64,000 nucleotides of DNA. Source: an uncultured Gammaproteobacteria bacterium. GTDB taxonomy: Bacteria; Patescibacteriota; Microgenomatia; Daviesbacterales; UBA10151. Where the stretch lies: assembly GCA_964396715.1 (NCBI GenBank), contig CAYNFQ010000003.1, forward strand, positions 565-64,564, read 5' to 3'. The stretch's first letter is position 1, and each line of letters begins with the position of its first letter. The translations under genes were made by a program, and so were the position numbers. The notes beneath the pieces are model-generated. The model was given only the letters and a program-made list of their open reading frames with translations, had not been told where the DNA came from and did no database searches. Below, in pieces: positions 24,395 through 40,083 of this stretch.

Positions 24395-24918
24395 TTAGAT
24401 GTTTTCCTTATTGTTGTTTTCTTTGCTGTTACTTTTTTAACTGTAGCGACTTTTCTGACAACCGGCTTTTTAATCTTGTCTGTTTTCTTACTTATCACTT
24501 GCTCGCCACGCTTCGCTTGCGAAGCGGGTATCTTGTTACTTGTTACTTGTTCTAAAGGTTTTAACTCTTCAGCCCCAATAATACTCATTTTAACTACAGT
24601 TGTACTATCTCCTTCTCTTGCTCCCATTCTTATCATACTGGTATATCCGGAAATTCTATTTCCCAGTTTCGGAGCTATTTCTTTTATTAATCTTTCTTGT
24701 AGTAATTTATTGGAAAAATATGCTTGGAGTAATCTTTGGGAATTTTTACTCTTGGCCAAATTGATAATTTTATCAGCCAACCCTTTTATTGCCTTAGCTT
24801 TAGCCTCTGAAGTAGTTAAGTTTCCATGCAGGAAAAGCTCCTGCACTAAGCTTTTAAAGAGTGCTCGTCTTTCATTTTTATTTCTTCCCAGTTTTTTACC
24901 ATAAACTCTATGCCTCAC
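24391..24918 (-). CDS. rplQ: 50S ribosomal protein L17 with a Lys-rich C-terminal extension
   Basis: MRHRVYGKKLGRNKNERRAL, RMGAREGD. The tail contains a heptamer array and a palindrome. Confidence 0.9.
   Translation of the reverse strand: MRHRVYGKKLGRNKNERRALFKSLVQELFLHGNLTTSEAKAKAIKGLADKIINLAKSKNSQRLLQAYFSNKLLQERLIKEIAPKLGNRISGYTSMIRMGAREGDSTTVVKMSIIGAEELKPLEQVTSNKIPASQAKRGEQVISKKTDKIKKPVVRKVATVKKVTAKKTTIRKTSK
24499..24542. repeat. GC palindrome cgcttcgc-tt-gcgaagcg plus (CTTGTTA)x3 inside the L17 C-terminal tail, encoding EQVTSNKIPASQAKR
   Basis: Seen directly. Confidence 0.85.
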
Positions 24919-25813
24919 GCAGAGTCAACCCCCTCTCTGAGAGCTTTTCGGATATCAGACTTAATGATTTGGTACCCAAATTTTTGGCTTTCAAAAGTTG
25001 CGGGCGGGGAATATTAATCAGATCTTCAATGGTATTTAACTCAATTGCCTTTAAGGCATTGGTAATCCGAACCGGCAGATCCAGTTCTTCAATGGTAAGT
25101 TTTAGCAACTCTTCTGAGATTGTCGAAGAAACATTATCTACCTCTTCTTCTTGATCCGGCTCGTAAACTTTTCTGAAAGTCTCGGAAAGGATCTTTGACG
25201 CCTCAAGTAAGGCCTCCATCGGAGTTACCACACCATTGGTGGTGATATCCAAACTCAATTTATCAAAATTCGTGCTTCTGCCAACTCTGGTAGGTTCTAC
25301 TGTATAATTTACCGCCACAACCGGACTAAAAAGCGCATCAACTGAAATTGCCCCAATCTCGGGCAGTTTCCTCTCCTCTGCCATAGAATATCCTTTACCC
25401 CTTAAGGCAATCATCTCCATGTTAAGCTTGGATTTAGCATCTGTTAAAGTTGCAATATGCTGATCTTTGGAGATAATTTCTCCATCCCCTGCTATTTCAA
25501 AATCCGAGGCTGTAATCACCTTTTTGCCCGAAGCTTTTATGGTAAGCTTAATAGGCGTTTCTGAATTAACTCTGAGGTTAATCTTTTTAATATTTAAGAT
25601 AATTTCTATCACGTCTTCCAAAACCCCCTCAATTGTCGAGAATTGGTGTGAAACTCCGTCAATCTTGATAGATGTTACAGCAGAACCTGAAAGGGCAGTC
25701 AAAAGCACCCGCCTTAAGCTATTGCCCATGGTGTGACCAAATCCTTCTTGCAAAGGTTCTATGGCAATTTGGGCAAAATTATCTGATTCTTTATCTGTGG
25801 TAATTTTAAACAT
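24908..25813 (-). CDS. rpoA: DNA-directed RNA polymerase subunit alpha
   Basis: IEPLQEGFGHTMGNSLRRVLL plus a C-terminal domain. Confidence 0.9.
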   Translation of the reverse strand: MFKITTDKESDNFAQIAIEPLQEGFGHTMGNSLRRVLLTALSGSAVTSIKIDGVSHQFSTIEGVLEDVIEIILNIKKINLRVNSETPIKLTIKASGKKVITASDFEIAGDGEIISKDQHIATLTDAKSKLNMEMIALRGKGYSMAEERKLPEIGAISVDALFSPVVAVNYTVEPTRVGRSTNFDKLSLDITTNGVVTPMEALLEASKILSETFRKVYEPDQEEEVDNVSSTISEELLKLTIEELDLPVRITNALKAIELNTIEDLINIPRPQLLKAKNLGTKSLSLISEKLSERGLTLREA

Positions 25814-25815
25814 AA

Positions 25816-26418
25816 TTATCTTGAATAATATTCCACAATCAACTGCTCATCAATTGATTGTTCCATCTCCTCCCGTTGAGGAATTCTTAAAACCTTGCCT
25901 ACTGTAGCCTGTCTTTCAAGCCACTCCGGCAAGGTCACATTTACCTCTAAACTCTTTTTAACCTGTGCATTATCGCCTAATTTAGGCGATAATGCAATAG
26001 CCTGATCCTTCTTGACTATAAATGAAGGAATAGTCACCTTGCTATTGTCAACCAGGATATGACCGTGTGAGACCATCTGTCTTGCCTCGGCCCTGCTTGT
26101 TGCGAAACCTAACTTATAAACTACATTATCAAGCCTTGTTTCCAAAGTTTGGAGTAAACTTAAACCTGTAGAACCTTTAACTTTGGAGGCCATCTCATAA
26201 TATTTTTTAAATTGTCTCTCTAAAATTCCATACAACCTTTTTGCTTTTTGTTTTTCCCGCAGCTGCACCCCGTATTCTGAAATTCTTCTTCTTACTCTGC
26301 CGGTGTGTTGGCCGGGCGCCACAATCCCCTTTCTTTCCAAGGATTTAACATCTTTGGCAAAAAGAGGCAACCCTTCCCTTCGACTCAGTCTGCGTTTCGG
26401 ACCGGTATATCTACCCAT
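25816..26418 (-). CDS. rpsD: 30S ribosomal protein S4
   Basis: MGRYTGPKRRLSRREG, S4 domain. Confidence 0.9.
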   Translation of the reverse strand: MGRYTGPKRRLSRREGLPLFAKDVKSLERKGIVAPGQHTGRVRRRISEYGVQLREKQKAKRLYGILERQFKKYYEMASKVKGSTGLSLLQTLETRLDNVVYKLGFATSRAEARQMVSHGHILVDNSKVTIPSFIVKKDQAIALSPKLGDNAQVKKSLEVNVTLPEWLERQATVGKVLRIPQREEMEQSIDEQLIVEYYSR

Positions 26419-26440
26419 AGATTGACCTCCTGTCTATGGA

Positions 26441-26480
26441 ATTTCCAATTTGATATTTGATATTTGATATTTGATATTTG
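26441..26480. repeat. Heptamer tandem array (TTTGATA)x4-5 in the rpsK-rpsD intergenic region
   Basis: Seen directly. Confidence 0.9.
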
Positions 26481-26510
26481 CCGCCTTTGGCGAGCCTCGT
26501 CTTTGACGGG
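26479..26510. repeat. 32-bp GC-rich element tgccgcctttggcgagcctcgtctttgacggg, copy 1 (intergenic)
   Basis: Identical to 35690-35721. Confidence 0.85.
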
Positions 26511-26523
26511 AGATTTGACATTA

Positions 26524-26919: not shown

Positions 26920-26920
26920 A

Positions 26921-26980
26921 TTCTTTTTAGTTCCTCTAATTTCTTTTTAGTTCCTCTAATTTCTTTTTAGTTCCTCCTTC
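26921..26980. repeat. 20-bp unit ttctttttagttcctctaat repeated three times in tandem (third copy degenerate). Each unit carries an SD-like AGGAAC on the coding strand; it spans the rpsM 3-prime end and the rpsK RBS.
   Basis: Seen directly. Confidence 0.9.
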
Positions 26981-27388
26981 TGGAACCTTAGCTGCTACCG
27001 GGCCTCCTGTTTTTGCTACCACTTCTTTTCTGACAGTTCCGACAGTCTTTCTTTTGCCTCTTTTGGTTCTGGAGTTACTTCTGGTTCTCTGGCCCCTGAC
27101 AGGCAAACCCCTACGATGCCTGAAACCTCTGTAACTGCTGATGTCTTCCAGTCTTTTGATATTCTGTTCAATCTCTTGTTTTAAATCTCCTTCAACCTTA
27201 AATTTATCAACCACTTTTTGTAATTTGTTGATTTCTTCTTCAGTTAATTCTTTTATTCTTTTAGCTCCATCCACACCTGCATCCTGTAAAACAGACATCA
27301 CATTGGATCTTCCTATACCAAAAATATAAGTTAGCCCTATGTCTGCTCTCTTGTTCTCGGGAAGATCTACACCAGCTATACGTGCCAT
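26936..27388 (-). CDS. rpsM: 30S ribosomal protein S13. True start is MARIAGVDL at 27388; the ORF-track extension to 27445 reads through the heptamer repeats.
   Basis: [26 protein letters not shown]...; a long basic C-terminal extension. Confidence 0.9.
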
Positions 27389-27403
27389 TAGTAGTTTCCT
27401 CCG

Positions 27404-27457
27404 AATTGTAAATTGTAAATTGTAAACCTGTCTGCCGACAGGCAAGATTGTAAATTC
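27404..27457. repeat. (AATTGTA)x3 + GC hairpin cctgtc-tgcc-gacagg + one more AATTGTA unit, between rpmJ and the rpsM start
   Basis: Seen directly. Confidence 0.85.
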
Positions 27458-27460
27458 ATA

Positions 27461-27577
27461 TTATCCCTGCCTTTGCTTGTGTCTTGGGTCACGTGGGCAA
27501 ATGACATATAACATACCCTCTCTCTTGACTATTTTACAAAATTTACATCTGGTTTTAATACTGGCTGCTACTTTCAT
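27461..27577 (-). CDS. rpmJ: 50S ribosomal protein L36
   Basis: Manual translation gives [38 protein letters not shown] (38 aa). It is not in the ORF track. Confidence 0.85.
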
Positions 27578-27647
27578 ATTATTAGTTCTTAGTTCAGAGT
27601 GCTTAGTTCGTAGTAATTTCTATGAACTACCAACTAATAACTCATAA

Positions 27648-27905
27648 CTATTTAAGTCTAAACGTTATCCTTCCTTTATCCAAATCATATTTAGGACTCA
27701 TTTCCACTCTGACCCTGTCTCCTTCCAAAAGCCTGATATAGTGCATTCTCATCTTACCTGAAATGTGGCACAAGATCACCCTACCCAAAAGCTCGGGCAG
27801 ATCATCACACTTTTGTATCTCAACTCTGAATAAAGTATTAGGCAAAACCTCTTTAACTTTACCCTCAACCTCAATCACATCTTTTACCATAAATTTTAAA
27901 GTCAA
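27648..27905 (-). CDS. infA: Translation initiation factor IF-1
   Basis: [20 protein letters not shown]...S1-like OB fold; 85 aa. Confidence 0.85.
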
Positions 27906-27941
27906 AGTATTTTATCAGAATCAGCCTCATAATACAACCCA

Positions 27942-28751
27942 CTATGGGATTCGCCAGTCTGTTAAAACCTCCCCCTTTCCCTTTTCCACAACCACACTCA
28001 TCTCAAAAAGTCCGGCATAAGAGTGGTCCTCAGTGGAAAAAGTCCATCCGTCTTTTTCTAAAACTACCTCAGATCCACCTTTGGCATAAATTACCTCAAT
28101 GGCCAGAGTCATCCCTCTTTTTAACAGATGTCCTGCTCCTTTCTTTCCGTACCCGGGTATCTCAGGATCCTCGTGCAAACTCCTGCCCACGCCATGCCCA
28201 ACTAAACTTTTAACTATACTATATCCTGCTCCTTCTACTTTAGATTGAATTGCTGCTGAAATATCACCCACTCTATTCCCTGCGACTGCTTGTGCTATCC
28301 CCTCCTGCAATGCCTCTTCTCCAATTTCTAAAAATTTCTCTTTTTCCTCTCTAGCTTCCAGTTTCCAGTTTCCAGCATCTACTAATACACTCCATGCGCA
28401 ATCCGTATGCCAGCCTTTATACACAACCGCCAAATCAACAGACACTATATCACCTGCAACAAACTTTCTGGCAGTAGGTATTCCGTGTACCACCTGTTCA
28501 TTAACTGTGACACAGGTGGCGTAGTTATACCCGGGTACTGATTTATAAGATAAATCCCCACCCAAACGATAAATTTCCTCCTCAGCTAATTTATCCACCT
28601 CAAGCTCGCTTACTCCAACCTTAATAGCCTGCAGAGCTTTTTTCAAAGCCGATGCGGCAATTGCTCCAGACTTTCTCATTAAACTTAACTCATATGTGTT
28701 TCTTGATTTCATCCTGGATCTTTTGTATATCTCCCGTTCCCCCAACTTCAA
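27942..28751 (-). CDS. map: Methionine aminopeptidase type I. The true start is probably internal (MKSRNT... or MRKSGAI...), which shortens the overlap with adk.
   Basis: VHGIPTARKF...D..VVYKGWHTD...HGVGRSLHEDP metal-site motifs. Confidence 0.85.
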   Translation of the reverse strand: MKLGEREIYKRSRMKSRNTYELSLMRKSGAIAASALKKALQAIKVGVSELEVDKLAEEEIYRLGGDLSYKSVPGYNYATCVTVNEQVVHGIPTARKFVAGDIVSVDLAVVYKGWHTDCAWSVLVDAGNWKLEAREEKEKFLEIGEEALQEGIAQAVAGNRVGDISAAIQSKVEGAGYSIVKSLVGHGVGRSLHEDPEIPGYGKKGAGHLLKRGMTLAIEVIYAKGGSEVVLEKDGWTFSTEDHSYAGLFEMSVVVEKGKGEVLTDWRIP

Positions 28752-29214
28752 CTAATATACCCTGACTGTTGTAGTAGTCTAGCAGTGGTTGGGTTTGTTT
28801 ATAATATAGATCCAACCTTCGTCTAATAAGTTCCTCTGTATCATCTGCTCTTCCTCTTAAAAGCAACCTTTTGATGACTGTTTCTTTGGGCACATTCAGA
28901 TAAATCACTTTATCAAACTCTGGATCAAACATATTGAGCTGTTCCAAAGTCCTAGGATAACCATCCATCACAAAACCATTTTTACAATCTTCCTCACTTA
29001 CTCTTTTTCTAACTATTTCTGCAGTAGTCTGGTCATCCACCAGCTGGCCGGAATCCAGGATATTTTTAATTCTTCTCCCCTCATCAGAACCTTCTTCTCT
29101 TATTCTTCTAAAAATATCCCCTGTTGATATTTTAGGAACTCCCGAATGCTGAGCCAGCAGATCTGCCTGTGTAGATTTACCGCTGCCTTGCGGGCCAATC
29201 AGTAAAATTTTCAT
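28690..29214 (-). CDS. adk: Adenylate kinase
   Basis: MKILLIGPQGSGKSTQADLLA P-loop; short LID. Confidence 0.9.
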   Translation of the reverse strand: MKILLIGPQGSGKSTQADLLAQHSGVPKISTGDIFRRIREEGSDEGRRIKNILDSGQLVDDQTTAEIVRKRVSEEDCKNGFVMDGYPRTLEQLNMFDPEFDKVIYLNVPKETVIKRLLLRGRADDTEELIRRRLDLYYKQTQPLLDYYNSQGILVEVGGTGDIQKIQDEIKKHI

Positions 29215-29254
29215 TCTGCCATTATATCAGCAATCTGTTATAATTAGTATTACT

Positions 29255-29488
29255 ATGAACAGGGATCTTACAGAAAAAACATTACATTCTCTTCTTTCAG
29301 GTTCTCATCCTTTGGCTAAAAAATATGCTGGAAAACAGGTCTTTGTAGTAGATAAAGAGATTATACCTATTGGAAGAAGTACAAAATCCTTGTCTGATTT
29401 TAAACAACTAAAGATAAAACATGGTAAATCACCTGTCGCTGTTTTTGTTCCTCAGCCTGGAGCATCATATATACTTATCCTCAAATGA
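29255..29488 (+). CDS. Small DUF5678-like protein; such proteins are commonly paired with retropepsin-like proteases
   Basis: 77 aa, ...KYAGKQVFVVDKEIIPIGRS...; overlaps the next gene by 4 nt. Confidence 0.3.
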   Translation: MNRDLTEKTLHSLLSGSHPLAKKYAGKQVFVVDKEIIPIGRSTKSLSDFKQLKIKHGKSPVAVFVPQPGASYILILK

Positions 29489-29895
29489 AGATATTATCCT
29501 CTCCTTTTAGTTTCAAAGGAGATGGTTATTTAGGTAAAATCTATCGGCCCTATATTCAGATACTGATCTCTTCAGATAAAATTGATGAATGGATTCCTAC
29601 AGAAATGATTGTTGACACAGGTGCTGACTATACTCTTTTTCCAAAAAGATATGCTGGATTTTTAGGAATCAATCTCAATAAGGAATGTAAAATGGAAAAA
29701 ACCCAAGGTGTGGGAGGACAAGAAAAAATTTACCTTTGTAAAAAAGGTGTTTTTATAAAAATTGGAGAGTTTAAGCAAGAAATTCCTGTAGGCTTTTTAA
29801 ACAGGGATAATATCCCTTCACTCCTAGGAAGATTGCAAGCTTTAGAAGTCTTAACTCTGACTATGAAAGATAAAACAACAAAATTTGAGATATAG
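29485..29895 (+). CDS. Retropepsin-like (clan AA) aspartic protease
   Basis: EMIVDTGADYTLFP contains the D-T/S-G-A catalytic signature of retroviral-type aspartyl proteases. Confidence 0.5.
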   Translation: MKILSSPFSFKGDGYLGKIYRPYIQILISSDKIDEWIPTEMIVDTGADYTLFPKRYAGFLGINLNKECKMEKTQGVGGQEKIYLCKKGVFIKIGEFKQEIPVGFLNRDNIPSLLGRLQALEVLTLTMKDKTTKFEI

Positions 29896-29925
29896 TCGTA
29901 CAAGCAATTGGCATAAAGTTTGTGC

Positions 29926-29942
29926 GGACACCTTGAAGGTGT
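29926..29942. terminator. Hairpin gacacc-ttgaa-ggtgtc between the convergent protease gene and the 204-aa ORF; a bidirectional terminator candidate
   Basis: Seen directly. Confidence 0.3.
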
Positions 29943-29969
29943 CAAGCTAAATTTCTTTTATTAAGGATT

Positions 29970-30584
29970 TTATTTTGAAGGAGAACTTTTTTGTTGCAAC
30001 TCCTGAAACCTTCTTCCAAGTGCATCAGATTTTAAATAATCCTTATAGGACTGCACACCTTCTGCTAATCCCTTTGATGAGTCAAACTCTGTTTTCAATC
30101 TTGTTTGGTCATTTGTCCCTAAAGCATCAAAAATACCTTTTTGTGTTGTTATCCTATTCGATATACTATGTATTTGACCCATATCAACTCCTATATTTAA
30201 ATAGATAATATTTCCATATCCATCATCCCATTGAGCAATCATTGATTCTGCCATTTCTTCGCTAGTTAACCTTTTTCCTGCCAGGACAGCTTGTTTTATA
30301 GCTTCACTATCTGTAACATGTCCTAATGGTTTAGGACTATGGACTACTTGTTCATGAATTCTATCTAATTCTGCTTTTACGGCTTGATGTTCTGCAGCAA
30401 CAGTTGCTTCAAGCCCGAGACGGAATCGTTCGCCCTGAGCAGTTAAGGCTTCTTTAAGCTTAGCATTTGCTGCTTCTCCTTCTCTTTTGATACGATCTAT
30501 TTCTGCCTGTTCTTTTTCAGAAGGTTTCATCCCCAGAAAGCCATGAATTCTGCCAATTAAGTCTGGTGGTTCTTTATCTGCCAT
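29970..30584 (-). CDS. Hypothetical 204-aa protein inserted between secY and adk
   Basis: ORF track; no recognisable motif; slightly GC-richer. Confidence 0.3.
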   Translation of the reverse strand: MADKEPPDLIGRIHGFLGMKPSEKEQAEIDRIKREGEAANAKLKEALTAQGERFRLGLEATVAAEHQAVKAELDRIHEQVVHSPKPLGHVTDSEAIKQAVLAGKRLTSEEMAESMIAQWDDGYGNIIYLNIGVDMGQIHSISNRITTQKGIFDALGTNDQTRLKTEFDSSKGLAEGVQSYKDYLKSDALGRRFQELQQKSSPSK

Positions 30585-30614
30585 GAAAAAATTATATCAT
30601 AATTCAAATTAAAC

Positions 30615-31907
30615 TTATCTTCTTGCAAAAACTTCATAACTTCTTTCAATCAACTTACTTTCAAATTGCTTGGCAGTATCCATAATGACTGACACCACAA
30701 TCAACAGCCCTGTGCCGCCCAAAATCAAGGTGGTAATGCCTGTTAAGTTAGATGCAATAGAGGGCAGTATTGCTATAGCTCCCAAAAACAAGGCCCCGAA
30801 TAAGGTAATTCTCACCATGATGTAGTTTAAAAAAGCTGCTGTTTGTATGCCCGGCCTGATGCCGGGAATAAATCCGCCGTACTTTTTGATTTCATCGGAA
30901 ACTTTTGTCGGATTAAAAATAACCGCAGTGTAAAAGTAGGTAAACCCGACCACTAACGCAAAATATACCAAATTATAGGTAAAAGCGCTGGGATTAAAAT
31001 TAGCTGCCAGCCACCTGCCCAAAAAAGAAAGCTGCGGTTGGGTAACTTGGGCCAGATATGATCCTGCAAAGGAAGGCACCAAAACCAAAGACACAGCAAA
31101 AATTATGGGGATCACTCCTGCCTGATTTACCCGCAAGGGGATGTATGTTTGAGCCCCGGATCTTTCACCTTTATCTCCGATCACCCTTCTGGCATATTGA
31201 ACCGTTATTTGCCTTCTGCCCTCATTCACAAAGACCACGCCGGCAGTGACTACAATTCCCAAACTGGCGAAAATTAATATATTAATCAATTGGGTCTGAT
31301 CAACCAAAGTAGCAGTTTGGGTAAAAACCACCGGCAAACGGGAAACTATTCCTGCAAAAATCAAAAGAGATATACCATTACCTATTCCATATTCGGTGAT
31401 CAGCTCCCCCAGCCACATCAAAAATATAGTGCCTGCGCTCAACCCCACAACTATAGCAGCAATTTGTATTGGGGCAATTTGATCAACAACGCCCTGATTT
31501 CTTAAGAGTACAAACATACCAATGGCTTGTATGGCTGCCAGAGGTATACTCAAATATCTGGTATACTGGTTAATCATCTGCCTGCCGTATTCTCCTTCTT
31601 TGGATAATGCTTCCAGTTTCGGCATTATCATGGTTAAAAGCTGCATGATGATTGAGGCATTAATATAAGGGTTCAATCCCAAAGAAATTACCGAGAAATT
31701 AACCAATGTTCCCCCTGAAAATATATCCAGCAGCCCCAAAAATTGGTTTGAGGCAAACAGTTGCTGGAGCGCCACAAGATCCACCCCTGAAACAGGAATA
31801 TGCGCCACAATTCTGAAAATTATGACAAGTATCAAAGTGATGATGATTTTTCTTCGCAGTTCGGGAATTTTAAATGCCTTAAATATGGGGGCAAGAATGT
31901 CAGACAT
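30615..31907 (-). CDS. secY: Preprotein translocase subunit SecY
   Basis: 10 TM helices; SecY signature regions. Confidence 0.9.
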
Positions 31908-32331
31908 ATTCCACCTTTCCGCCTTTTTCTTCTATTTTCTTTTTTGCTCTTTGGGAAACAGGCAGTCTCACAGTCAAAGATACATTAATTTCCCCATTGC
32001 CTAAAATTTTTACTCCTTTTTTCGCATCTTTTTCCTTGATCAGCCCCAGCTTTAGTAACTGCTCGATATCCACAATGGTTTTAGCTTTAAGTTTCCCCAA
32101 GTCCGCCAGATTTACCACAGAAAATTTGTCTGAAACCTGAGGGTTGCCTAAACCCCTTCTTAAGGGTAATTTTTTATACAGGTTGTTGCCGGAAAATGCC
32201 ACAGTTAGCTTACCCCTGCTCTTTTGTCCCTTAGTGCCCCGTCCTGCAGTCTTGCCCAATCCGGAACCAATACCACGGCCTACCCGTTTGTTACCTTTTC
32301 CTTTACTTTTAATCAGTTTATGTAGTTTCAT
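31900..32331 (-). CDS. rplO: 50S ribosomal protein L15
   Basis: [25 protein letters not shown]. Confidence 0.9.
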
Positions 32332-32804
32332 ACGGATCTTAACTGACTTAGTGCCTCCATTGTGGCGTAAACATTTGATGCTTTATTTTTGGTTCCCAGA
32401 GATTTGGAAACTATATCGTGAATGCCGGCAGCCTCAACCACCACCCGCACCGCTCCTCCGGCAATCACACCCGTACCAGTTGGAGCGGGTTTGAGTAAAA
32501 CTTTGGCGGCGCCGTTTTTAATCAAAACCTGGTGAGGAATAGTTCTATCCTTAAGAGGCACTGTAATCAAATGTTTTTTTGCATAAGTTGTGGCTTTTCT
32601 GACAGCTGATTGAACCTCAGAGGCTTTGCCCAAGCCTACCCCCACTTTTCCCTTTCTATCTCCAACAACTACCAAAACCGACAGAGATCTCTTATCTCCT
32701 CCTTTGGTTTTTTTGGAAACTCTGTTTACCTGAACCACTCTTTCAAAGTACTCCTGCAATTCTGTATTTATTGGTTGATTATTGATATTTGACACATTTG
32801 ACAT
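32328..32804 (-). CDS. rpsE: 30S ribosomal protein S5. It overlaps rplO by 4 nt, so there is no L30 gene.
   Basis: RVSKKTKGG...VVVGD..G.VG.G; the first codons lie in a heptamer array. Confidence 0.9.
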
Positions 32805-32837
32805 TTGAAATTTGAAATTAGAAATTTAAAATTCTAA
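32787..32837. repeat. Degenerate heptamer array (ATTTGAN)x6-7 spanning the rpsE start codon and the rplR-rpsE gap
   Basis: Seen directly. Confidence 0.8.
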
Positions 32838-33158
32838 CCCTCCTTCTCTGGCCCCTTTGGCAACCTGGGCTATTCTACCATGATACAAAAATCCGCCTCT
32901 GTCAAAAACTACCTTTTTGATCTTGTTCTTTAATGCTTTTTCAGCTAAAGTCTTGCCTGTCTGATATGCTTTCTCCATCTTTTTGCCATCCATCTTTACA
33001 TCAGAGAAAGAAACTAAAGTTTTACCAATCTCATCATCTATAATCTGAGCATAGATATGCTGATTAGATCTAAATACAGCTAACCTGGGGCATTCTTTGG
33101 TACCCCCGATCTTCCTTCTTATTTTCTGATGTCTTTTTTCCCTTAATACTGAATACAT
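32826..33158 (-). CDS. rplR: 50S ribosomal protein L18
   Basis: [18 protein letters not shown]...[12 protein letters not shown]. Confidence 0.9.
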
Positions 33159-33169
33159 AATACTTAATA

Positions 33170-33736
33170 CTATTTCGCTCCTCCTGCTTGGACTGTCCCT
33201 ACTTTGGCGCTCTTTCCCACCTTCTTTCTGATATATTCACCCTCAAATCTGATTCCTTTACCCTTATAAACATCGGGGATTCTCACCTTCTTGATATTGG
33301 CGGCAATTTGTCCCACTAATTGTTTATCAATACCCATCACTTTAATTTTGGTATTATCTGCTACCTCAAAGGCAATCCCCGCAGGTGCTACAATCTCCAC
33401 CTGATGGGAATAACCCACATTTAAAACTAACTTGTCTCCGGCAACTTGGGCCCTAAACCCAACACCAACAAGTTCCAAGTTTTTACTCCAGCCCTCTGTC
33501 ACACCCAAAACCATATTGGCAGTTAAATTTCTAAATAGCCCATGCAGGGCTTTATTTCTTTTTAGGTCATTTTTCCTTTTAACCAAAACTTGATCTCCTG
33601 CTATCTCAACCTTAATTCCAGGCGCTACAGTGATGCTAAGATGCCCCTTGGGACCATTCACCATCAAATTAGCCCCATCTTTTTGAATGGTTACTCCCGG
33701 TGGTATGGTGATGGGTGCTGCTCCTATTCTACTCAT
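33170..33736 (-). CDS. rplF: 50S ribosomal protein L6
   Basis: [18 protein letters not shown]...two L6 repeats. Confidence 0.9.
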
Positions 33737-33743
33737 ATGTTAC

Positions 33744-34121
33744 TTACCAGATTAATGCCAGTACCTCCCCTCCTACTTTGGCTGCTCTTGCCTGATTGTC
33801 AGTCATCAAACCCTTGGGCGTTGAAATTACCGCTATACCCAAACCATTTAATACTCTTGGCAGATCTTTAACACCTTTGTAAATTCTTAAAGAAGGTTTT
33901 GACACTCTTTCTATCTCGGTAATGGCAGGTTTTCTTAAATGATATTTTAAGATCACTTTAATCTCTCTGTCTTTATGTGAAACACTTTCAATGTAGCCTT
34001 CTTTTTTAAGGAGCTGTATCAGTTTAAGAATCAGTTTTGAATACCTGAGCAAAACCTGCTCTTTACCAACCTGATAGCCATTTTTTATTCTTATCAGCGC
34101 ATCTGCCACAGGATCATTCAT
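33744..34121 (-). CDS. rpsH: 30S ribosomal protein S8
   Basis: MNDPVADALIRIKNGY. Confidence 0.9.
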   Translation of the reverse strand: MNDPVADALIRIKNGYQVGKEQVLLRYSKLILKLIQLLKKEGYIESVSHKDREIKVILKYHLRKPAITEIERVSKPSLRIYKGVKDLPRVLNGLGIAVISTPKGLMTDNQARAAKVGGEVLALIW

Positions 34122-34122
34122 A

Positions 34123-34302
34123 TTACCAGCTCGCTTTCTTCACACCCGGCAATGCACCGACGTGTGCCAGCTCTCTGAAACAAAGCCTGCAAAGCCCGAA
34201 TTTTCTCAAATATGATCTTGCCCTACCGCACTTCATACAGCGGTTTTTCTTTTGTACTTCATATTTAAACTTCTTTTTTACAATATTTGATACTTTAGCC
34301 AT
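34123..34302 (-). CDS. rpsZ: 30S ribosomal protein S14 type Z (zinc-binding, 59 aa). True start is MAKVSNIV; the ORF-track N-extension is spurious.
   Basis: [25 protein letters not shown] CxxC...CxxC. Confidence 0.85.
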
Positions 34303-34303
34303 A

Positions 34304-34849
34304 TTAACTCCTAAACGGCATTCCCAATGCCTCAAGTAATTTTTTACCCGCTTCGCGATTTTTGGCCGTGGTGGTAATGGTGACAGCCAACCCCCGCACT
34401 TTATCTATGATTTTATAATCCACTTCAGGAAAAATAATCTGTTCCCGCAGTCCTAAGTTTAAATTTCCGGAATGGTCAAAAGAGTTGGCAGACACTCCCT
34501 TAAAATCCCGCACTTTTGGTAAAACTATATTGATAAATTTATCCAAAAAAGCGTACATTTTCTCACCCCGCAATATGACCATGATTCCAACAGGCTGACC
34601 TTTGGCTACTTTAAATGAGGCAATTGATTTTTTTGCATACGTTACCAGAGGCAGTTGTCCGCTCAATGCTGAGAGGTAAACCTTCACCTTTTCCAAAATC
34701 CCGCTGTTGTCTTTGGCCTCTCCCAGCCCCATGCTGATGACGATTTTTTCCACTTTTGGCACTGCCATAATATTTTTAAGCCCCAAATCCATCCTTAATT
34801 TATTTTTTATTTCTTTAAGATATTTTTCTTTTAACCTTTGCATAATCAC
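34304..34849 (-). CDS. rplE: 50S ribosomal protein L5
   Basis: [12 protein letters not shown]...L5 signature. Confidence 0.9.
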
Positions 34850-35151
34850 TTAATCTCCTTTGTGCACTTTTTACATATTCTCATCTTACTTGTACCTGCT
34901 ATCTGGTATCCCACCCTGGTCACTTTTTGGCAATTTGGGCAAATTAATCCCACGTTGGATATATTCATCGGTTTGGGAATATCAATAATACCTCCCTGGG
35001 TATCTCCCATTTTTCTGACATGCCTTTTGTAAAGATTTGCCCCTTCCACAAACACTCTGCCCTTCTTTGCCAAAACATATGCCACACTACCCTCTTTCCC
35101 TCTATCTTTACCAAGTAAAATTTTTACCTTGTCCCCCTTTTTGATTTTCAT
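34846..35151 (-). CDS. rplX: 50S ribosomal protein L24 with a C-terminal zinc-ribbon extension
   Basis: KIKKGDKVKILLGKDRGKEGSV KOW domain, then CPNCQKV...CKKCTKE. Confidence 0.85.
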   Translation of the reverse strand: MKIKKGDKVKILLGKDRGKEGSVAYVLAKKGRVFVEGANLYKRHVRKMGDTQGGIIDIPKPMNISNVGLICPNCQKVTRVGYQIAGTSKMRICKKCTKEIK

Positions 35152-35167
35152 AGTGAGCGTAGTCGAA

Positions 35168-35536
35168 CTACCATACCTCCTGTGCTAAAGAAATAATCTT
35201 AGTAAAACCCTTATCTCTAACCTCTCTGGCAATCGGGCCAAAAATTCTGGTTGCGCGCAAATTTCCATCATCATCCACTACAACGCCTGCATTATCATCA
35301 AACTTTATGTAAGAACCATCAGAGCGCCTGAGTTCTTTTTTAGTCCTGACTATGACAGTTTTGACAATCTCATGATCTTTAACCTGACCATTAGGATCAG
35401 CTCCTTTAACCACTGCCACCACCAGTTGTCCCAAAGTGGCTTTTCTTTTACCGGATCCGCCTAAAGGTTGGATCACCTGCAAGGCTTTGGCTCCGCTATT
35501 ATCTGCAACTGTCAGTCTAGTCCTGTGTTGAACCAT
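35168..35536 (-). CDS. rplN: 50S ribosomal protein L14
   Basis: [17 protein letters not shown]. Confidence 0.9.
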
Positions 35537-35592
35537 AAAGTTAGGGAATAGTGAATAGGGTTTAGTGATTAGTCGAAATCACAAATCTTAAG

Positions 35593-36048
35593 CTATTCCT
35601 TACCTCCTTTCTCTATCTTTGAAGAAGATTTTATTTTTTTTACTGGTTTTTCTTTAATTTTTTCTGACTGTTTACTGTCCACTGTACCCTGCCGCCTTTG
35701 GCGAGCCTCGTCTTTGACGGGTTCACTTGCTTTGTCCTCCGGCATTACCTGCCTGCCGGCAGGCACGGCCTCAGCAATCACCTCTTCTGCTGCCATCTTC
35801 TGCTCAGCCTCAACAATTTCTGCTAAATTTTTGCCGACAACTTTGGTAATTTTGAAATGTTTATTCTTAGATACCGGCTTGCATTTTATGATCTCCACTA
35901 TATCTCCGTCTTTCACTCCAATAGAATCATCCGCTAAGTATTTTTTAGTTCTAATAAATGTTTTTTTATACAGGGGGTGGGCAGCTACTCGCTCCACAAT
36001 GACCGTGGCTGTATTTTGTAATTTTGTTGATGTCACCCTACCAATCAT
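35593..36048 (-). CDS. rpsQ: 30S ribosomal protein S17 with a C-terminal extension of about 70 aa
   Basis: Canonical S17 OB fold in residues 1-80; the extension contains the 32-bp repeat and a GC palindrome. Confidence 0.85.
   Translation of the reverse strand: MIGRVTSTKLQNTATVIVERVAAHPLYKKTFIRTKKYLADDSIGVKDGDIVEIIKCKPVSKNKHFKITKVVGKNLAEIVEAEQKMAAEEVIAEAVPAGRQVMPEDKASEPVKDEARQRRQGTVDSKQSEKIKEKPVKKIKSSSKIEKGGKE
35690..35721. repeat. 32-bp GC-rich element, copy 2, inside the rpsQ C-terminal extension (encodes PVKDEARQRRQ)
   Basis: Identical to 26479-26510. Confidence 0.85.
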
Positions 36049-36350
36049 TATTTTCTACCTCCATTTTTTCGGTTATCAGTCTGTGGTTTGCGGTCTTCAG
36101 ATTGACCGACAACTGATTTACTTTGACCTGACAACTGAGAACTTAGAACTGATAACTGTTCTTTCTGTCTTAATATGGTCAAAACCCGTGCCAAATCTTT
36201 TTTCTTTTTATTAACTTGTTTTAAATCCTGTAATTTTTTCATATTTTTATCCATCGTCAGATCTGCAATTTCTTTTTTGAAAGCTGTGATCTTCTCTTTT
36301 AACTCTTTTACATCCAATCCTTTAATCTGCGTCAGTTCATTTTTTTTCAT
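36048..36350 (-). CDS. rpmC: 50S ribosomal protein L29 (extended C-terminus)
   Basis: [31 protein letters not shown]. Confidence 0.85.
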
Positions 36351-37407: not shown

Positions 37408-37800
37408 CTACTTTTCCTCCTTTTTTTCTGCTTTTTCAGTTTTGACATTTGACATTTGAGATTTGAGATTTAAATCGTCCGTTAGGACGATTTTAATATG
37501 ACTCATTCTTCTTTTGAATGGCTTGACTCTGCCTCTGGTGCCTGCTCTAAATCTCCTCATCTTCATACTTTCATCAACCTCCAGTTTTTTGAAAACCACC
37601 TTATCTGCATCTAATCCTGCAACTTTGGCATTTGCCAAAACTGTTTCCATGGCTTTTTCCAGATCTTTTGCAGCATATTTTGGTGTGACTCTAAGTATTG
37701 CCAAAGCCTGACTGGGGTTCATCTTTCGCACCAGATCAGCCACCAACCTCAATTTCCGAGGTGAGGTGTGTATATATCGTTGTATTGTTTGTATTTCCAT
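37408..37800 (-). CDS. rplV: 50S ribosomal protein L22; the C-terminus is encoded by a heptamer array plus a GC hairpin
   Basis: PRKLRLVADLVRKMNPSQALAILRVTPK. Confidence 0.9.
   Translation of the reverse strand: MEIQTIQRYIHTSPRKLRLVADLVRKMNPSQALAILRVTPKYAAKDLEKAMETVLANAKVAGLDADKVVFKKLEVDESMKMRRFRAGTRGRVKPFKRRMSHIKIVLTDDLNLKSQMSNVKTEKAEKKEEK
37441..37490. repeat. (TTTGACA)x2 (TTTGAGA)x2 + hairpin tcgtcc-gtta-ggacga, encoding the L22 C-terminus and lying just before the rpsC RBS
   Basis: Seen directly. Confidence 0.85.
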
Positions 37801-37813
37801 AAATACTGAAAAA

Positions 37814-38101
37814 TTACGTCTTCGCCGTAGATTTTTCAGTCACCTTTCCATGACCGTGGAATTTTCTGGTCGGCGCAAATTCACCTAAGTAGTGACCTAC
37901 CATAGACTCTGACACAAATACAGTGACAAAGTTTTTCCCCTGATGAATTAAAAATGTATGTCCCACAAACTCAGGGGGGATTTGCGACCTTCTGGCCCAG
38001 GTTTTTATTGGATCTTTTTTACCAGCAGCCCCTTTTTGCTTCATTACTTTCTCAAGTAATTTTGCATCAATATATGGTCCTTTTTTAGTTGATCTGCTCA
38101 T
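37814..38101 (-). CDS. rpsS: 30S ribosomal protein S19. True start is [10 protein letters not shown] at 38101; the ORF-track extension is spurious.
   Basis: [11 protein letters not shown]...[12 protein letters not shown]. Confidence 0.9.
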
Positions 38102-38868
38102 TACTTTCTCCTTTTCAAAATATATTTGTTGGTCCATTTCTTTTTATTTCTGGTTTTACCAACAGCAGGACGGCCGTATTTGGTCATTGGCCTTTTTCTG
38201 CCAATTCCGGACCTTCCTTCTCCTCCTCCATGAGGATGGGAATCCGGATCCTGAGCCACACCTCTAACAGTCGGTCTAATGCCCATATGTCTCATTCTGC
38301 CTGCTTTTCCTATCACTCTTGCCCTAAACTCTTCATTCCCTAAAACCCCCACAGTTGCCAAAGATTGCAAAGGTACCATTCTAATCTCTCCGGAAGGCAA
38401 TTTCAAATGAGCAAATCCACCTTCCTTGGCAAGAAGCTGCAAAGCAACTCCCGCAGATCTGCCCAGCTGCCCGCCCCTTCCAGGAACGAGTTCTACATTA
38501 TGCACCAGGGTGCCCACAGTTAAATTCTTTAACTGCATTGCATTGCCCGCTCTTGCCTCCACTTTTTCACCTGATTCAACTTTATCTCCAACTTGCAACC
38601 TTGATGGAGCAAGTATGTACCTAAACTCCCCATCCGTATATTTAATTAGAGCAATACCAACATTTCTATTTGGATCATAGTCTACTGAAACAACCTCACC
38701 TGAAATTCCAAACTTATCTCTTGTAAAATCAATTTCCCGCCAGTATCTTTTGTGTCTGCCGCCCTGACTGCGCACTGTCACCATTCCACCAGCTGATCTT
38801 CCAGAGTGTTTCTTAAGTAATGTTTTTAAATTTTTTATTGTTAACTTGTTACTTGTTACTTGTGCCAT
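38101..38868 (-). CDS. rplB: 50S ribosomal protein L2
   Basis: [11 protein letters not shown]..., [10 protein letters not shown]. Confidence 0.9.
38844..38864. repeat. (ACTTGTT)x3 encoding AQVTSNKL at the L2 N-terminus
   Basis: Seen directly. Confidence 0.85.
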
Positions 38869-38869
38869 G

Positions 38870-39301
38870 TTATTTACCAGTAATCACCTTTCTTTGAGTA
38901 GTGGGCGCAGCACCTACTGCGCTTTTTTCCACTTTAACTTTTGTTCTTCCCAAAAAATCCTTTTTCTCACGAAGCTTAATCGGTTCACCTTCGGCAGTTG
39001 TAACTACAGCTTCTTCTTTTGGAGTTTCAAAGATGGCAATTTTTTCACCCTTTTTAACTTGCACTATGGCCTTTTTCAACCCCGCAGTTTTGTAAACTTT
39101 TCTGACACGTCTTTGCTGTTTTGTTTGACCTTTAATATTTAAAACCTTAACTCTTAAAACTTTCACACCAAATTTATCGGCTACGATTTTGGCAATTTGC
39201 GGTTTTGTTGCTTCTTTATTCACTTCAAAAGTGTAAAAATTAGCTTGTGCAAGCTTCATTGATTTTTCAGTAATAATAGGTCTTTTGATTAAAATATTCA
39301 T
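38870..39301 (-). CDS. rplW: 50S ribosomal protein L23 (C-terminal extension)
   Basis: ITEKSMKLAQANFYTFEV... Confidence 0.85.
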   Translation of the reverse strand: MNILIKRPIITEKSMKLAQANFYTFEVNKEATKPQIAKIVADKFGVKVLRVKVLNIKGQTKQQRRVRKVYKTAGLKKAIVQVKKGEKIAIFETPKEEAVVTTAEGEPIKLREKKDFLGRTKVKVEKSAVGAAPTTQRKVITGK

Positions 39302-39304
39302 ATT

Positions 39305-39332
39305 CTTGTTACTTGTTACTTGTTACTTGTTA
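39305..39332. repeat. (CTTGTTA)x4 spanning the rplD stop (encodes ...KVTSNK*) and the rplW RBS/start
   Basis: Seen directly. Confidence 0.9.
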
Positions 39333-40083
39333 CCTTTCCACTTAACCTTTCCACTGCCTCTTTAGTGATCAGTAACATGTCGTGTCTTAAGATCTCATAG
39401 GCATTTATCAAATCCGCAGGTAATGCACTCATTCCTGGAATATTCCTAACAGCTCTTACCACATTGTCCATCTTTTCTGCTGTAATGATTAATGCACTCG
39501 CAGATTTTTGTTTCTTGTCTGATGACTGCGGGCCCCCGAAGGGGAGAACGACTGACGACATTAACTTTACCATCTCTTTTGTTTTACCAGAAGCCTTTTC
39601 TATCCCTGATATTCCTAATATTCCCTTATTCCCCAACTTGTCAGATAAAGCAGCCATTAAAGCCGCTTTTTTCATTTTCTTGGGTAAATCTAATTTTACT
39701 TTGCGGGGTTTCGGCCCAAACACAATCCCTCCTCCCACAAAAATTGGGGCTCTGATCGCACCGTGTCTGGCTCTGCCTGTGCCTTTTTGTCTCTGGATTT
39801 TGGCTGTTGAACCGACCACCTCACCTCTGGTTTTGGTGTTACCTGGTTGAGTTTTTTGATTAGCTGTATAAACTCTTAAAGCCTGGGCTAGTAATTTTTT
39901 ATTAACCTCTCCTCCAAAAATTTCTTTAGGGAGTGATAAAGTCCCAGTTGATCTACCTGCTAGGGAATAAACTGGAACTGATAATTTTGTTTGTCGTTTA
40001 TCGTTTATCGTTTTTCGTTCTGCTTTTTGTGATTTTACGATAGACGATTTACGATTAACGATTAACGATTTCTTAACCGGCAT
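39316..40083 (-). CDS. rplD: 50S ribosomal protein L4, with an N-terminal extension encoded by inverted heptamer arrays and a C-terminus ...KVTSNK
   Basis: L4 core LSVPVYSLAGRSTG...TQPGNTKTRGEV. Confidence 0.9.
   Translation of the reverse strand: MPVKKSLIVNRKSSIVKSQKAERKTINDKRQTKLSVPVYSLAGRSTGTLSLPKEIFGGEVNKKLLAQALRVYTANQKTQPGNTKTRGEVVGSTAKIQRQKGTGRARHGAIRAPIFVGGGIVFGPKPRKVKLDLPKKMKKAALMAALSDKLGNKGILGISGIEKASGKTKEMVKLMSSVVLPFGGPQSSDKKQKSASALIITAEKMDNVVRAVRNIPGMSALPADLINAYEILRHDMLLITKEAVERLSGKVTSNK
39995..40071. repeat. Two oppositely oriented heptamer arrays (CGTTTAT-type and ACGATTA-type) encoding the N-terminal extension of L4
   Basis: Seen directly. Confidence 0.75.

Follow-up and report, generated by a model that had tools for sequence, protein, structure and literature searches.

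Heptanucleotide Tandem Arrays and Small GC-Rich Hairpin Modules at Gene Junctions and Ribosomal Protein Termini in a Candidatus Daviesbacteria Genome

The Ribosomal Super-Operon and the Comparison Loci

We analyzed a stretch of 64,000 nucleotides (hereafter the window; positions 565 to 64,564 of contig CAYNFQ010000003.1, assembly GCA_964396715.1) that carries a ribosomal super-operon, in which short tandem arrays of 7-nt units and small GC-rich hairpin modules occupy gene junctions and the ends of ribosomal proteins (r-proteins). The host is a groundwater bacterium of Candidatus Daviesbacteria (Microgenomates, Candidate Phyla Radiation, CPR), the name under which identical or similar L4 proteins are listed, and positions 25168–45536 of the window are identical to contig JACPUL010000002.1 of NCBI assembly GCA_016192255.1. 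According to the list of open reading frames (ORFs) and Pfam, the super-operon lies on the minus strand and runs from rplC (40855) to rpsI (23587); L30 is absent, S14 is of the short zinc type, and rpsJ and rplC are split by a gene for a 1081-aa surface protein. The Pfam scan, which covered 40 ORFs of the window, confirmed the identities of L3, L4, L2, L22, S5, S17, L29, S13, and L17, and the repeat-bearing segments fall outside the conserved Pfam domains of these proteins. Ribosomal genes abut or overlap in this clade, and therefore additions at a junction are read as the C-terminus of the upstream protein or the N-terminus of the downstream one.

Comparison loci carry three-digit numbers here, to be told apart from the names of r-proteins. 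Loci L001–L054 came from a scan of a genome collection with L15 (Microgenomates), and L058–L063 and L069–L072 are closer relatives reached via L4 homologues. The nearest relatives (L001, L058, L059, L061, and L062) have r-proteins 55–88% identical to those of the window.

Arrays with a Period of Seven

Arrays of 7-bp units at operon junctions and in protein termini were first noticed in a preliminary description of this DNA, and they were recovered by Tandem Repeats Finder (TRF), by a strict self-match scan, and by reading the junctions on the coding strand. TRF returned 23 period-7 rows in the window (2.4–7.1 copies), 17 of them between 24.5 and 40.1 kb. The strict scan found 13 period-7 arrays against 0.0 in 20 dinucleotide-preserving shuffles, with no array at periods 4–6 and 8–13; the six at period 14 are doubles of period 7. 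The interval from 24499 to 40071, to which the preliminary description had confined the arrays, does hold them, and they are also found outside it and inside genes (1291–1324, 28356–28375, 63851–63883, and 51015–51085).

Statistics of placement rest on 18 well-defined arrays within the window, of which they occupy 0.85%. Twelve lie in the boundary zone (intergenic or at most 60 nt from a gene end), which makes up 24% of the window (P = 1.6e-4); three are in terminal tails outside Pfam domains or outside the part that aligns with relatives (L17, the right arm of L4, and L29), and three are placed in the interior of MiaA, Map, and a YceG-like protein. The r-protein operon, 27% of the window, holds 14 of the 18 (P = 1e-5), and its excess persists after correction for gene-boundary density (10 vs 2, P = 1.8e-4). 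The sense strand of the arrays is 10% G, compared with 24% in the operon. Identical units recur in five pairs among the 18 arrays, with 0.28 expected (P = 1.5e-4), and “family” is therefore a fair word for them; arrays that share one unit nevertheless have no flanking sequence in common. In their tandem 7-nt units, period-7 excess, and gene-end preference, the arrays agree with the heptanucleotide long simple sequence repeats (SSRs).

The arrays are real. In Logan assemblies from two sequencing runs, 8.8 kb (26947–35719) and 3.0 kb (32703–35719) of the window recur without a single mismatch or gap. Their contigs end within repeats: position 35719 lies in a module termed M1, and position 26947 belongs to a tandem repeat of 20-nt units. 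Orthologous arrays are present in other species sequenced by other studies. The two independent assemblies and these orthologues together exclude the assembly artefact that the preliminary description had named as a risk.

Arrays and Modules Read as Ribosomal Protein Termini

As previously described, CAAGTAA-type arrays are placed at the C-terminus of L4 (KVTSNK*), the N-terminus of L2 (MAQVTSNKL), and in the tail of L17 (EQVTSNKIP). The array in L4, read as (GTAACAA), gives the last five codons and the TAA stop of the protein (…SGKVTSNK*) and ends 6 nt before the rplW ATG, which has no preceding Shine-Dalgarno sequence; the L17 tail region at 24487–24551 encodes EQVTSNKIPASQAKRGEQVISK. Arrays of the ATTTCAA type likewise encode the tail of L22 and the start of S5 and make up the rpsK/rpsD spacer. 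The peptide QVTSNK in three proteins had been singled out, and yet it is automatic: a 7-nt unit cycles through all three frames every 21 nt, and CAAGTAA arrays therefore spell a cyclic permutation of Q-V-T-S-N-K-stop, with no need of a shared frame or origin. An array inside an ORF must also stop or break before TAA, so that changes removing the stop, once offered in support of absorption, are a survivorship condition that any surviving in-ORF copy must show, and not independent evidence. In L2, moreover, the frame escapes the stop through one inserted nucleotide (AAGT-T-AACAA), not through the proposed substitution of TAA by TTA.

Alignment with orthologues, a check suggested in the preliminary description, revealed that the extensions of the window coincide with arrays and hairpins and that the junctions of relatives are compact without them: the nearest relatives have 0–25 nt where the window has 35–233 nt of arrays and hairpins. 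Compared with L001, the window has 35 vs 2 nt at the L4–L23 junction, 75 vs 6 nt at L36–S13, 108 vs 2 nt at S11–S4, 182 vs 5 nt in the L17 tail (L17 of L001 stops 61 aa earlier), 233 vs 25 nt in the S17 tail with its spacer, and 86 vs 0 nt in the L29 tail. L2 of the relatives starts with METIN where that of the window has its array-encoded residues, and L4 of the relatives ends with …VERLKK*, leaving an 8-nt junction to L23, where that of the window ends with …VERLSGKVTSNK*. Since these junctions are compact in the relatives, the L4 C-terminus, the L2 N-terminus, and the tails of five other proteins (L17, S17, L29, L22, and S13) are recent additions.

The relatives carry arrays or GC palindromes of their own at different junctions and with other units. 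In L058, for example, L14–L24 carries (ATATCAA)n and L22–S3 inverted CGAAATn arrays, and GC palindromes mark two more junctions (L23–L2 and L24–L5). Loci L003 and L013 hold many arrays and palindromes and most other CPR loci none; the trait is therefore patchy and dynamic. Across Daviesbacteria, the N-termini and one internal loop of L4 homologues bear translated heptamer arrays (KVTSNKVQVTSKK, YQVSSIKYQ, and QLNSKFKIQNSK) and translated GC palindromes. That internal loop (…KLMSSV…DKKQK…ALI…) is a second hot spot of translated heptamer arrays. N-termini with translated GC-rich palindromic repeats were seen in the L4 homologues P0005, P0011, P0018, and P0051 and in other Daviesbacteria L4 proteins, and P0018 has them at its C-terminus as well; examples are SLRAKAKQS…IATKPTASRNDK, RGPAASVSRRASS…RRDPSSASPL, and ILGSEATPESK…DSGQARMT.

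Two further junction segments were observed. The 20-nt repeat at 26921–26976 triplicates the ribosome-binding region of S11 and supplies the C-terminus and stop of S13; it is the sole strong tandem repeat in the operon with a period other than seven and is another form of the phenomenon seen in the arrays. The L29 tail (36060–36100) and the S17 tail of L061 (about 14300–14350, …KQKTDNRKNKETK) have a segment of about 30 nt in common. It reads A(C/A)AGA(C/A)AACTGATAAC(C/A)GAAAAAAT, lies just 5' of the ribosome-binding site of the next gene, and may be a mobile or a convergent junction segment.

Concerted Change of Array Units

Units change in concert, in that substitutions are shared by neighbors. 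The L22 array of the window has two AAATCTC units followed by two AAATGTC units. AAACGA has become AAGCGA in three successive units of L072, AATCGTT has become AATCGTC in two to four units of L062 and L070, and the arrays of L059 and L061 show a 14-nt alternation. Such sharing is the signature of unit-wise duplication and loss, and the arrays thus look like the products of in-place unit duplication with concerted evolution, not like inserted copies of one element.

GC-Rich Hairpin Modules

The M1 core consists of 30 nt, CCGTCAAAGACGAGGCTCGCCAAAGGCGGC, that can be read as two mini-hairpins of 4 bp (CGTC-AAA-GACG and CGCC-AAA-GGCG), and within the window it forms a 32-nt exact repeat between the S11–S4 spacer and the S17 tail. 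It is 100% identical at the two window sites, and the L22 tail of L061 as well as another three metagenome contexts hold identical copies; none was found in viral contigs. At the L22 site, the empty state of the window (TTAAATCTCAAATCTC followed directly by AAATGTCAAATGTCAAAACTG) can be compared with the filled state of L061 (TTAAAACTCAAAACTC-M1-AAAAGTCAAAAGTCAAAACTG), in which M1 lies between units 2 and 3 of the array. Unit counts are equal (2+2) at the filled and empty sites, and there is therefore no target duplication. M1 has heptamer arrays on both sides in five of six distinct contexts (chance expectation about 3e-10) and stands exactly between …TC and AAA… of AAANNTC units in four; it almost always occupies a unit boundary inside an array. 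The 5' flanks end in CTC, GTC, or AAC, with only the terminal C common to all. All four copies read as coding (S17 of the window, L22 of L061, and the ORFs of L064 and L065, the latter two read by eye) share the frame PVKDEARQRRQ.

M2 (CCTGNCGGCAGNCAGG, with longer relatives) and M3 (CGCTTCGCAAGCGAAGCG, folding as CGCTTCG-CAAG-CGAAGCG) have stems of 6–7 bp. The M2 family has members at 5393–5408 and 27427–27442; the latter, CCTGTCGGCAGACAGG, interrupts the TTTACAA array between L36 and S13. In S17, the M2 hairpin is CCTGCC-GGCAGG (35748–35763), and since four relatives read …I(A/S)E joined directly to VMPE… here, M2 of the window is a clean 21-nt in-frame insertion. Three longer M2-family relatives, palindromes of 43–48 nt in both orientations, occur in L013, one of them inside an AATTCAA array in the L17 tail of that species; M3 splits the CAAGTAA array in the L17 tail of the window, and unrelated small palindromes are inserted in the rplD arrays of L069 and L061. 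Overall, GC-rich perfect hairpins lie within 8 nt of an array in 3 of 22 cases in the window, with 0.37 expected (P = 0.006). The 64 kb hold two copies of M1 and three of M2, with no doublets. By comparison of occupied and empty sites, the GC modules are true insertions.

Three hairpins beside arrays had been cited in the preliminary description. That at 27427–27442 is indeed M2 within an array, and the L17 hairpin exists, although at 24509–24526 instead of 24499–24516; the sequence at 37475–37490 is plain L22 coding, palindromic because the codons for Ile (ATC) and Asp (GAT) are reverse complements.

The Array Pair at the 5' End of rplD

The N-terminal extension of L4 is encoded, as had been noted, by inverted arrays, (AATCGTT)x5 in the left arm (40034–40071) and (AACGATA)x4.4 in the right arm (39989–40019) with a spacer of about 14 nt (40020–40033). 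The L4 ATG overlaps the end of rplC; the element starts 9 nt downstream of this ATG and encodes residues 4–32 or so (KKSLIVNRKSSIVKSQKAERKTINDKRQTK). It is present with the same boundaries in at least ten Daviesbacteria species. In six species (the window, L058, L059, L061, L062, and L063), nucleotide identity is 81–94% in the extension vs 66–71% in the L4 core, and at positions with identical residues the codons differ in 4–23% of cases in the extension vs 47–57% in the core. Being shared by at least ten species and far more conserved in nucleotides than the L4 core, the element is old or constrained and not a recent absorption, the one part of the earlier account of this extension that did not hold; it instead reflects either constraint at the nucleic-acid level or a non-vertical history.

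The element folds as an interrupted hairpin with a minimum free energy (MFE) of -28.1 kcal/mol (z = -3.6). For a conserved RNA structure, RNAalifold gave no covariation support: it detected no compensatory pair, whether over 6 or over 10 species, and several pairs are broken, with three changes from U-A to U-G. As a known r-protein leader RNA the element matched no Rfam family at gathering thresholds, and a dispersed repeat was set aside as well, as it occurs at rplD only in all loci compared. Carriers are scattered among non-carriers on a poorly resolved neighbor-joining tree of L4 cores, and variants exist in which the left arm is deleted (L071) or interrupted (L069).

Coordinates and Other Features of the Window

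The positions of the arrays, modules, and related features are collected in Table 1.

Table 1. Heptamer arrays, hairpin modules, and related repeats of the window (TRF, Tandem Repeats Finder; RBS, ribosome-binding site).
Feature	Position	Strand	Sequence or arrangement	Basis or remark
L4 C-terminus and whole L4–L23 spacer	39305–39333	-	(GTAACAA)x4.1	TRF, strict scan, junction reading
L2 N-terminus	38838–38863	-	(CAAGTAA)x3.6 plus 1-nt insertion	TRF, junction reading; encodes MAQVTSNKL
L22 C-terminal tail	37441–37471	-	(AAATCTC)x2(AAATGTC)x2, …LKSQMSNVK…	Orthologous empty site for M1
L22 palindrome	37474–37491	-	ATCGTCC-TAAC-GGACGAT	Conserved coding sequence KIVLTDD, also in L061 and L059
L29 C-terminal tail, 28 aa	36102–36158	-	7-nt and 21-nt repeats (CAGTTnT-type)	Tail absent from L001, L058, and L061
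S17 internal M2 module	35749–35769	-	GCCGTGCCTGCCGGCAGGCAG, 21 nt in frame	Peptide AVPAGRQ
S17 C-terminal tail	35664–35720	-	M1 copy (35691–35720), then (nnACAGT)x3 (35664–35688)	32-nt exact repeat
L6 stop, spacer, and first five codons of L18	33142–33171	-	(TATTAAG)x4.3	L18 ATG in variant unit TATTATG
L18 stop, spacer, and S5 start (MSNVSNINN)	32782–32833	-	(ATTTCAA/ATGTCAA)x7	S5 ATG in variant unit
Map (methionine aminopeptidase), internal	28356–28375	-	(CTGGAAA)x2.9, …AGNWKLEA…	TRF, strict scan
IF1–L36 spacer	27582–27650	-	Two inverted heptamer arrays (AGTTATG… / …GAACTAA)	One long interrupted hairpin
L36–S13 spacer	27404–27454	-	TTTACAA unit (27443–27454), M2 hairpin (27427–27442), (TTTACAA)x3.3 (27404–27426), Shine-Dalgarno	
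S13 C-terminus and S11 RBS	26921–26976	-	Perfect 20-nt repeat x2.8, GGAACTAAAAAGAAATTAGA	TRF, junction reading
S11–S4 spacer	26448–26522	-	AATGTCAAATCTC (26510–26522), M1 (26480–26509), (ATATCAA)x4.7 (26448–26480), Shine-Dalgarno	
L17 tail	24487–24551	-	(CAAGTAA)x2.9 (24532–24551), M3 hairpin (24509–24526), degenerate CAAGTGATAAGTAAG (24487–24501)	
Upstream of fusA	51015–51102	-	Hairpin CTGACC-TAGAA-GGTCAG (51086–51102), (AATTTAC)x4.4 (51055–51085), (ACATTnT)x4.4 (51015–51045), Shine-Dalgarno and ATG	
MiaA, internal, after P-loop	1291–1324	-	(AAATTTC)x4.9, …GTGKISNFKFQISNFSK…	TRF, strict scan
YceG/MltG-like ORF, internal	63851–63883	-	(AAATTCC)x4.7, …EINSKFQIPNDKF…	TRF, strict scan
Larger M2-family member	5378–5418	+	…GCCTGCCTGAC-GGCA-GTCAGGGCAGGC…, then T-run	Terminator-like, after PMT-family gene 3914–5128
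L4 5' element	39989–40074	-	Inverted arrays within the rplD start	

The hairpin of the IF1–L36 spacer has an MFE of -22.1 kcal/mol (z = -3.65 vs shuffles). The unit AAATTTC in MiaA is a canonical X_XXY_YYZ slippery heptamer for -1 ribosomal frameshifting, present in almost five copies in the ORF. Counts of terminators or promoters in the window were not above those in shuffles, and only the palindrome at 5378–5418 is terminator-like. The Rfam hits of the window at gathering thresholds were limited to a tRNA and a SAM-I/IV riboswitch, neither of them in the operon; the tRNA scan of the window gave tRNA-Pro alone.

Several other observations concern the surroundings of the r-protein genes. Between rpsJ and rplC, 41072–45014 holds the surface protein, with LTD and fn3 domains, and a 94-aa ORF with sigma-70 region 4 only; because of this insertion, rplC begins its own transcription unit, apart from rpsJ. 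The C-terminal tail of L3 (40073–40210, and in relatives) is acidic, of low complexity, and PPPEEK…SE-rich; among relatives, it ranges between about 27 and more than 130 residues in length, with no dependence on the heptamer arrays. At 29255–30584, the adjacency of secY and adk is broken by a 204-aa ORF without a Pfam match and an oppositely oriented pair, a 77-aa ORF and a 136-aa ORF resembling retroviral-type aspartyl proteases; at the same site, L059 has other cargo, two unknown ORFs and a HicAB toxin–antitoxin pair. Directly downstream of rpsI (22937–23528) are a ribbon-helix-helix (CopG-type) ORF and a small partner ORF, which together are toxin–antitoxin-like.

Farther away, the SAM-I/IV riboswitch (19941–20043; 47 bits, above the gathering score) is directly upstream of the S-adenosylmethionine synthetase gene (18837–19949). 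The region 12358–16730 contains two large serine recombinase genes (12358–13953 and 15153–16730), bracketed by paired mirror versions of GC hairpins (13979–13995 with 14944–14960, and 13-bp stems at 15039–15072 with 16586–16619). The region adjoins tRNA-Pro (16648–16722) and resembles one or two mobile elements integrated at a tRNA gene; the recombinases were considered as mobilizers of the modules and rejected, since they belong to this integrated element.

Origin and Maintenance of the Repeats

On balance, we think it probable that two interacting kinds of small repeats populate this Daviesbacteria genome and that additions at its junctions become r-protein tails. The heptanucleotide arrays, A/T-rich, G-poor on the sense strand, and built from favored units such as AAA(T/A)NTC, CAAGTAA, and TTTACAA, would grow and turn over in place through gain, loss, and homogenization of whole 7-nt units in slipped-strand type events. 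The GC-rich hairpin modules (M1, M2, and M3, 16–43 nt) would be inserted without target duplication, preferentially at unit boundaries in arrays, and would probably also be precisely lost, perhaps through a REP/IS200-like single-strand “peel and paste”, a mode that we infer only from their behavior (hairpins, no duplication, precise empty site). Both kinds may survive only at low-harm sites, namely intercistronic junctions, disordered basic termini, and surface loops, where most copies would be nearly neutral. Junction additions could even supply a stop or start codon, giving species-specific r-protein tails, and the array pair of rplD would be an exception, apparently constrained at the nucleotide level. 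The idea that a small, insertion-prone repeat family had been absorbed into coding sequence thus stands in part: the tails are repeat-derived and recent, the GC modules are inserted, and units are reused, but the arrays themselves are not inserted copies.

Several results weigh against this proposal. There is no difference in unit number between the two assemblies of this population, nor between the near-identical strains L059 and L060 (18 substitutions, 0 indels), and therefore ongoing slippage is not demonstrated; the affected genes are essential housekeeping genes and not the surface or virulence genes in which phase-variable contingency loci typically lie, and the frame-sensitive slippage tracts that had been claimed for these junctions are a possibility only. 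The reuse of units at unlinked loci and the exclusive period of seven go beyond plain slippage and hint at a sequence- or length-specific mechanism, a puzzle of period and favored units that is likewise raised in the heptamer-repeat literature (PMC4679880; PMC4692102). In Lys-rich, A-rich termini, the G-poor sense strand could have to do with function and not with origin, and the rplD arrays are too conserved for neutral repeats. A generic test over 22 loci detected no association of GC-rich islands with arrays (3 vs 6.7 expected), although it was uninformative because the islands as defined did not include M1 and M2 and consist mainly of coding sequence. Finally, no Y1/RAYT-type transposase or other obvious mobilizing enzyme was present among the 40 ORFs of the 64-kb window scanned with Pfam.

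It is unlikely, in our judgment, that the arrays are instead functional mRNA cis-elements, either unstructured A-rich, G-poor leaders or sites for RNA-binding proteins, that tune downstream translation, with the hairpins as mRNA-stabilizing or processing signals and coding capture as a side effect. The arrays do stand directly before starts, replacing a Shine-Dalgarno sequence at rplW, rpmJ, rpsE, and rplR and preceding one at rpsC, rpsD, rpsM, and fusA; their low G content, their concentration in a highly expressed operon beyond boundary density, the better folding of inverted arrays than of shuffles (z about -3.6), and the nucleotide conservation of the rplD arrays in 10 species would also fit, and the same idea has been proposed for the TAACTGA repeats of Beggiatoaceae (PMC4679880). 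However, where the window has junction arrays its closest relatives have none, their own arrays lying elsewhere and using other units, the arrays inside MiaA, Map, and YceG have no downstream start, the hairpins have neither covariation support nor an Rfam match, and terminator-like sites are no commoner than in shuffles. A still less probable account takes the arrays as footprints of the modules, whose repeated insertion and excision, or stalling at whose hairpins, would duplicate the adjacent 7 nt. It could explain why modules fall precisely on unit boundaries and have identical units left and right of them, why the period is always exactly 7 whatever the unit, and why the halves of the L22 array differ alike in two species, as if once separated by a module in both; it is opposed by the equal unit counts of the filled and empty L22 sites, by the M2 insertion in S17, which has no array or evident duplication, by the majority of arrays that lack a module, and by the heptamer excess of many bacteria, for which no connection with such modules has been reported (PMC4679880; PMC4692102).

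That the arrays are errors of assembly or sequencing, or that mis-annotated ORF ends make the extensions unreal, is extremely improbable. The source is a metagenome-assembled genome, short-read contigs break in its repeats, as the ends of the Logan contigs illustrate, and the start codons inside arrays (S5, L18, and L2) are only predicted; but two runs gave independent, identical assemblies, orthologous arrays and modules occur in metagenome-assembled genomes and contigs of other studies, and the ORFs are open through the arrays with intact genes downstream. For the DNA itself, this explanation is effectively refuted. A bolder reading, which goes beyond turnover and insertion at tolerant sites and which we hold only as a tentative and rather doubtful conjecture, combines two proposals: that the GC modules are array-targeting mobile units in CPR bacteria, and that the inverted heptad array of rplD is a functional operator, a centromere-like site, or an mRNA regulator. 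Under the former, M1 above all would be among the smallest autonomous-looking mobile DNA units known, and its precise integration and excision at AAANNTC-type unit boundaries would imply an undescribed array-targeting mobilization system, possibly one that also creates or maintains the 7-nt periodicity and the favored units. Under the latter, an array of five ATCGT followed by four to five ACGA(T) would have been kept nearly unchanged in at least ten Daviesbacteria species. The L4 cores of the carriers are saturated at synonymous sites, and the element has a patchy distribution in the clade, of the kind expected of homing or selfish elements.

If turnover in place and module insertion are the source of the tails, as we favor, the comparison of empty and filled sites shows how lineage-specific r-protein tails and loops can arise in a streamlined CPR genome, where junction repeats and hairpin insertions of 20–30 nt are read through because genes abut. 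The “why seven?” puzzle of heptamers, so far one of cyanobacteria, Beggiatoaceae, and xanthomonads, now includes the Candidate Phyla Radiation, and the physical link of heptamer repeats to very small hairpin elements offers a concrete system for asking how both are made and moved. In practical terms, the repeats break short-read contigs, blur the calling of r-protein starts and stops, and bring non-homologous segments into proteins that serve as CPR phylogenomic markers. Two sub-findings deserve follow-up: the array-targeting 30-nt M1 with its empty and filled sites, and the nucleotide-conserved heptad array of rplD, which is a specific candidate for a new cis-element.

Comparison with Known Systems

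The heptamer repeats known as STRR were reportedly described in cyanobacteria by Mazel et al. in 1990. Heptamer SSRs are over-represented in many bacteria (PMC4679880; PMC4692102), and the heptanucleotide long SSRs of Mrazek, Guo, and Shah (2007), in the summaries given in these two papers, take in the GGGAATC-type repeats of Xanthomonas and Nostoc. Like them, the arrays of the window are short tandem 7-nt runs with a period-7 excess, intergenic or at gene ends, patchy in distribution, and drawn from a few favored units, and their length and sequence vary between related species at the same intergenic sites. Unlike them, they belong to a CPR bacterium of roughly the 1-Mb class, their units are A/T-rich and G-poor and not G-rich, many lie inside essential r-protein ORFs and give starts or stops, and GC modules are nested in them.

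The TAACTGA direct repeats of marine Beggiatoaceae and some Cyanobacteria and Bacteroidetes (MacGregor, 2015; PMC4679880) occur in 2–6 copies only a few nucleotides away from start codons, where a Shine-Dalgarno sequence is often lacking. Inside r-protein operons, they are found upstream of fusA, rplC, rpsD, and rpsA, and they overlap upstream stop codons, with in-ORF copies at the protein periphery (PMC4679880); SSRs in general are enriched near protein termini (PMC3315296). The TAACTGA study reported no link to hairpin modules and no comparison showing growth of r-protein tails (PMC4679880). Similarly to the TAACTGA repeats, the arrays of the window end near start codons inside the r-protein operon, often without a Shine-Dalgarno sequence, and overlap ORF ends; unlike that system, several units are used and not one, TAACTGA is not among them, and the only match to TAACTGATAACTGA in the window has two mismatches and is within chance expectation.

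REP and REPIN elements, present in tens to hundreds of copies per genome and often as inverted doublets, are mobilized by RAYT transposases, and other palindrome-associated elements derive from IS200/IS605, whose miniature forms have subterminal hairpins at both ends and a fixed short target 5' of the left end. Nostoc contains “small dispersed repeats” of 21–27 nt, which Elhai et al. reportedly described in 2008. The modules share with these elements a GC-rich, imperfectly palindromic structure of 16–43 nt, the presence of several families per genome, a location within operons between cistrons, either orientation (L013), identical unlinked copies, no target duplication, and an apparently precise empty site. 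Unlike REP, they are translated inside coding sequence (M1 and M2 in S17, M3 in L17, and M1 in L22 of L061 and other ORFs) and are thus not strictly extragenic, and neither RAYT nor TnpA was found among the 40 Pfam-scanned ORFs of the window, nor a REPIN doublet in the 64 kb. To our knowledge, a preference for the unit boundaries of heptamer arrays is not a described property of REP. The small dispersed repeats of Nostoc are cited in PMC3116915.

For the array pair of rplD, a different relationship may be suggested by analogy, as a lead only. It contains five direct and four to five inverted contiguous 7-bp units with an invariant core of 4–5 bp (ATCGT/ACGA), and its primary sequence is conserved without covariation of pairing. 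The ribbon-helix-helix protein omega of plasmid pSM19035 binds heptad operator and centromere arrays of WATCACW in direct and inverted runs, with which these properties could be compared; unlike those arrays, the rplD element lies inside an essential chromosomal ORF and has another core sequence, and any protein binding to it is putative.

In the literature searched, no description of such repeats in Daviesbacteria or in CPR r-proteins was found, nor any report of modules nested in arrays, of capture by r-proteins, or of a CPR setting. Overall, the phenomenon is a variant, specific to this lineage, of repeats that cyanobacteria and sulfur bacteria are known to carry.

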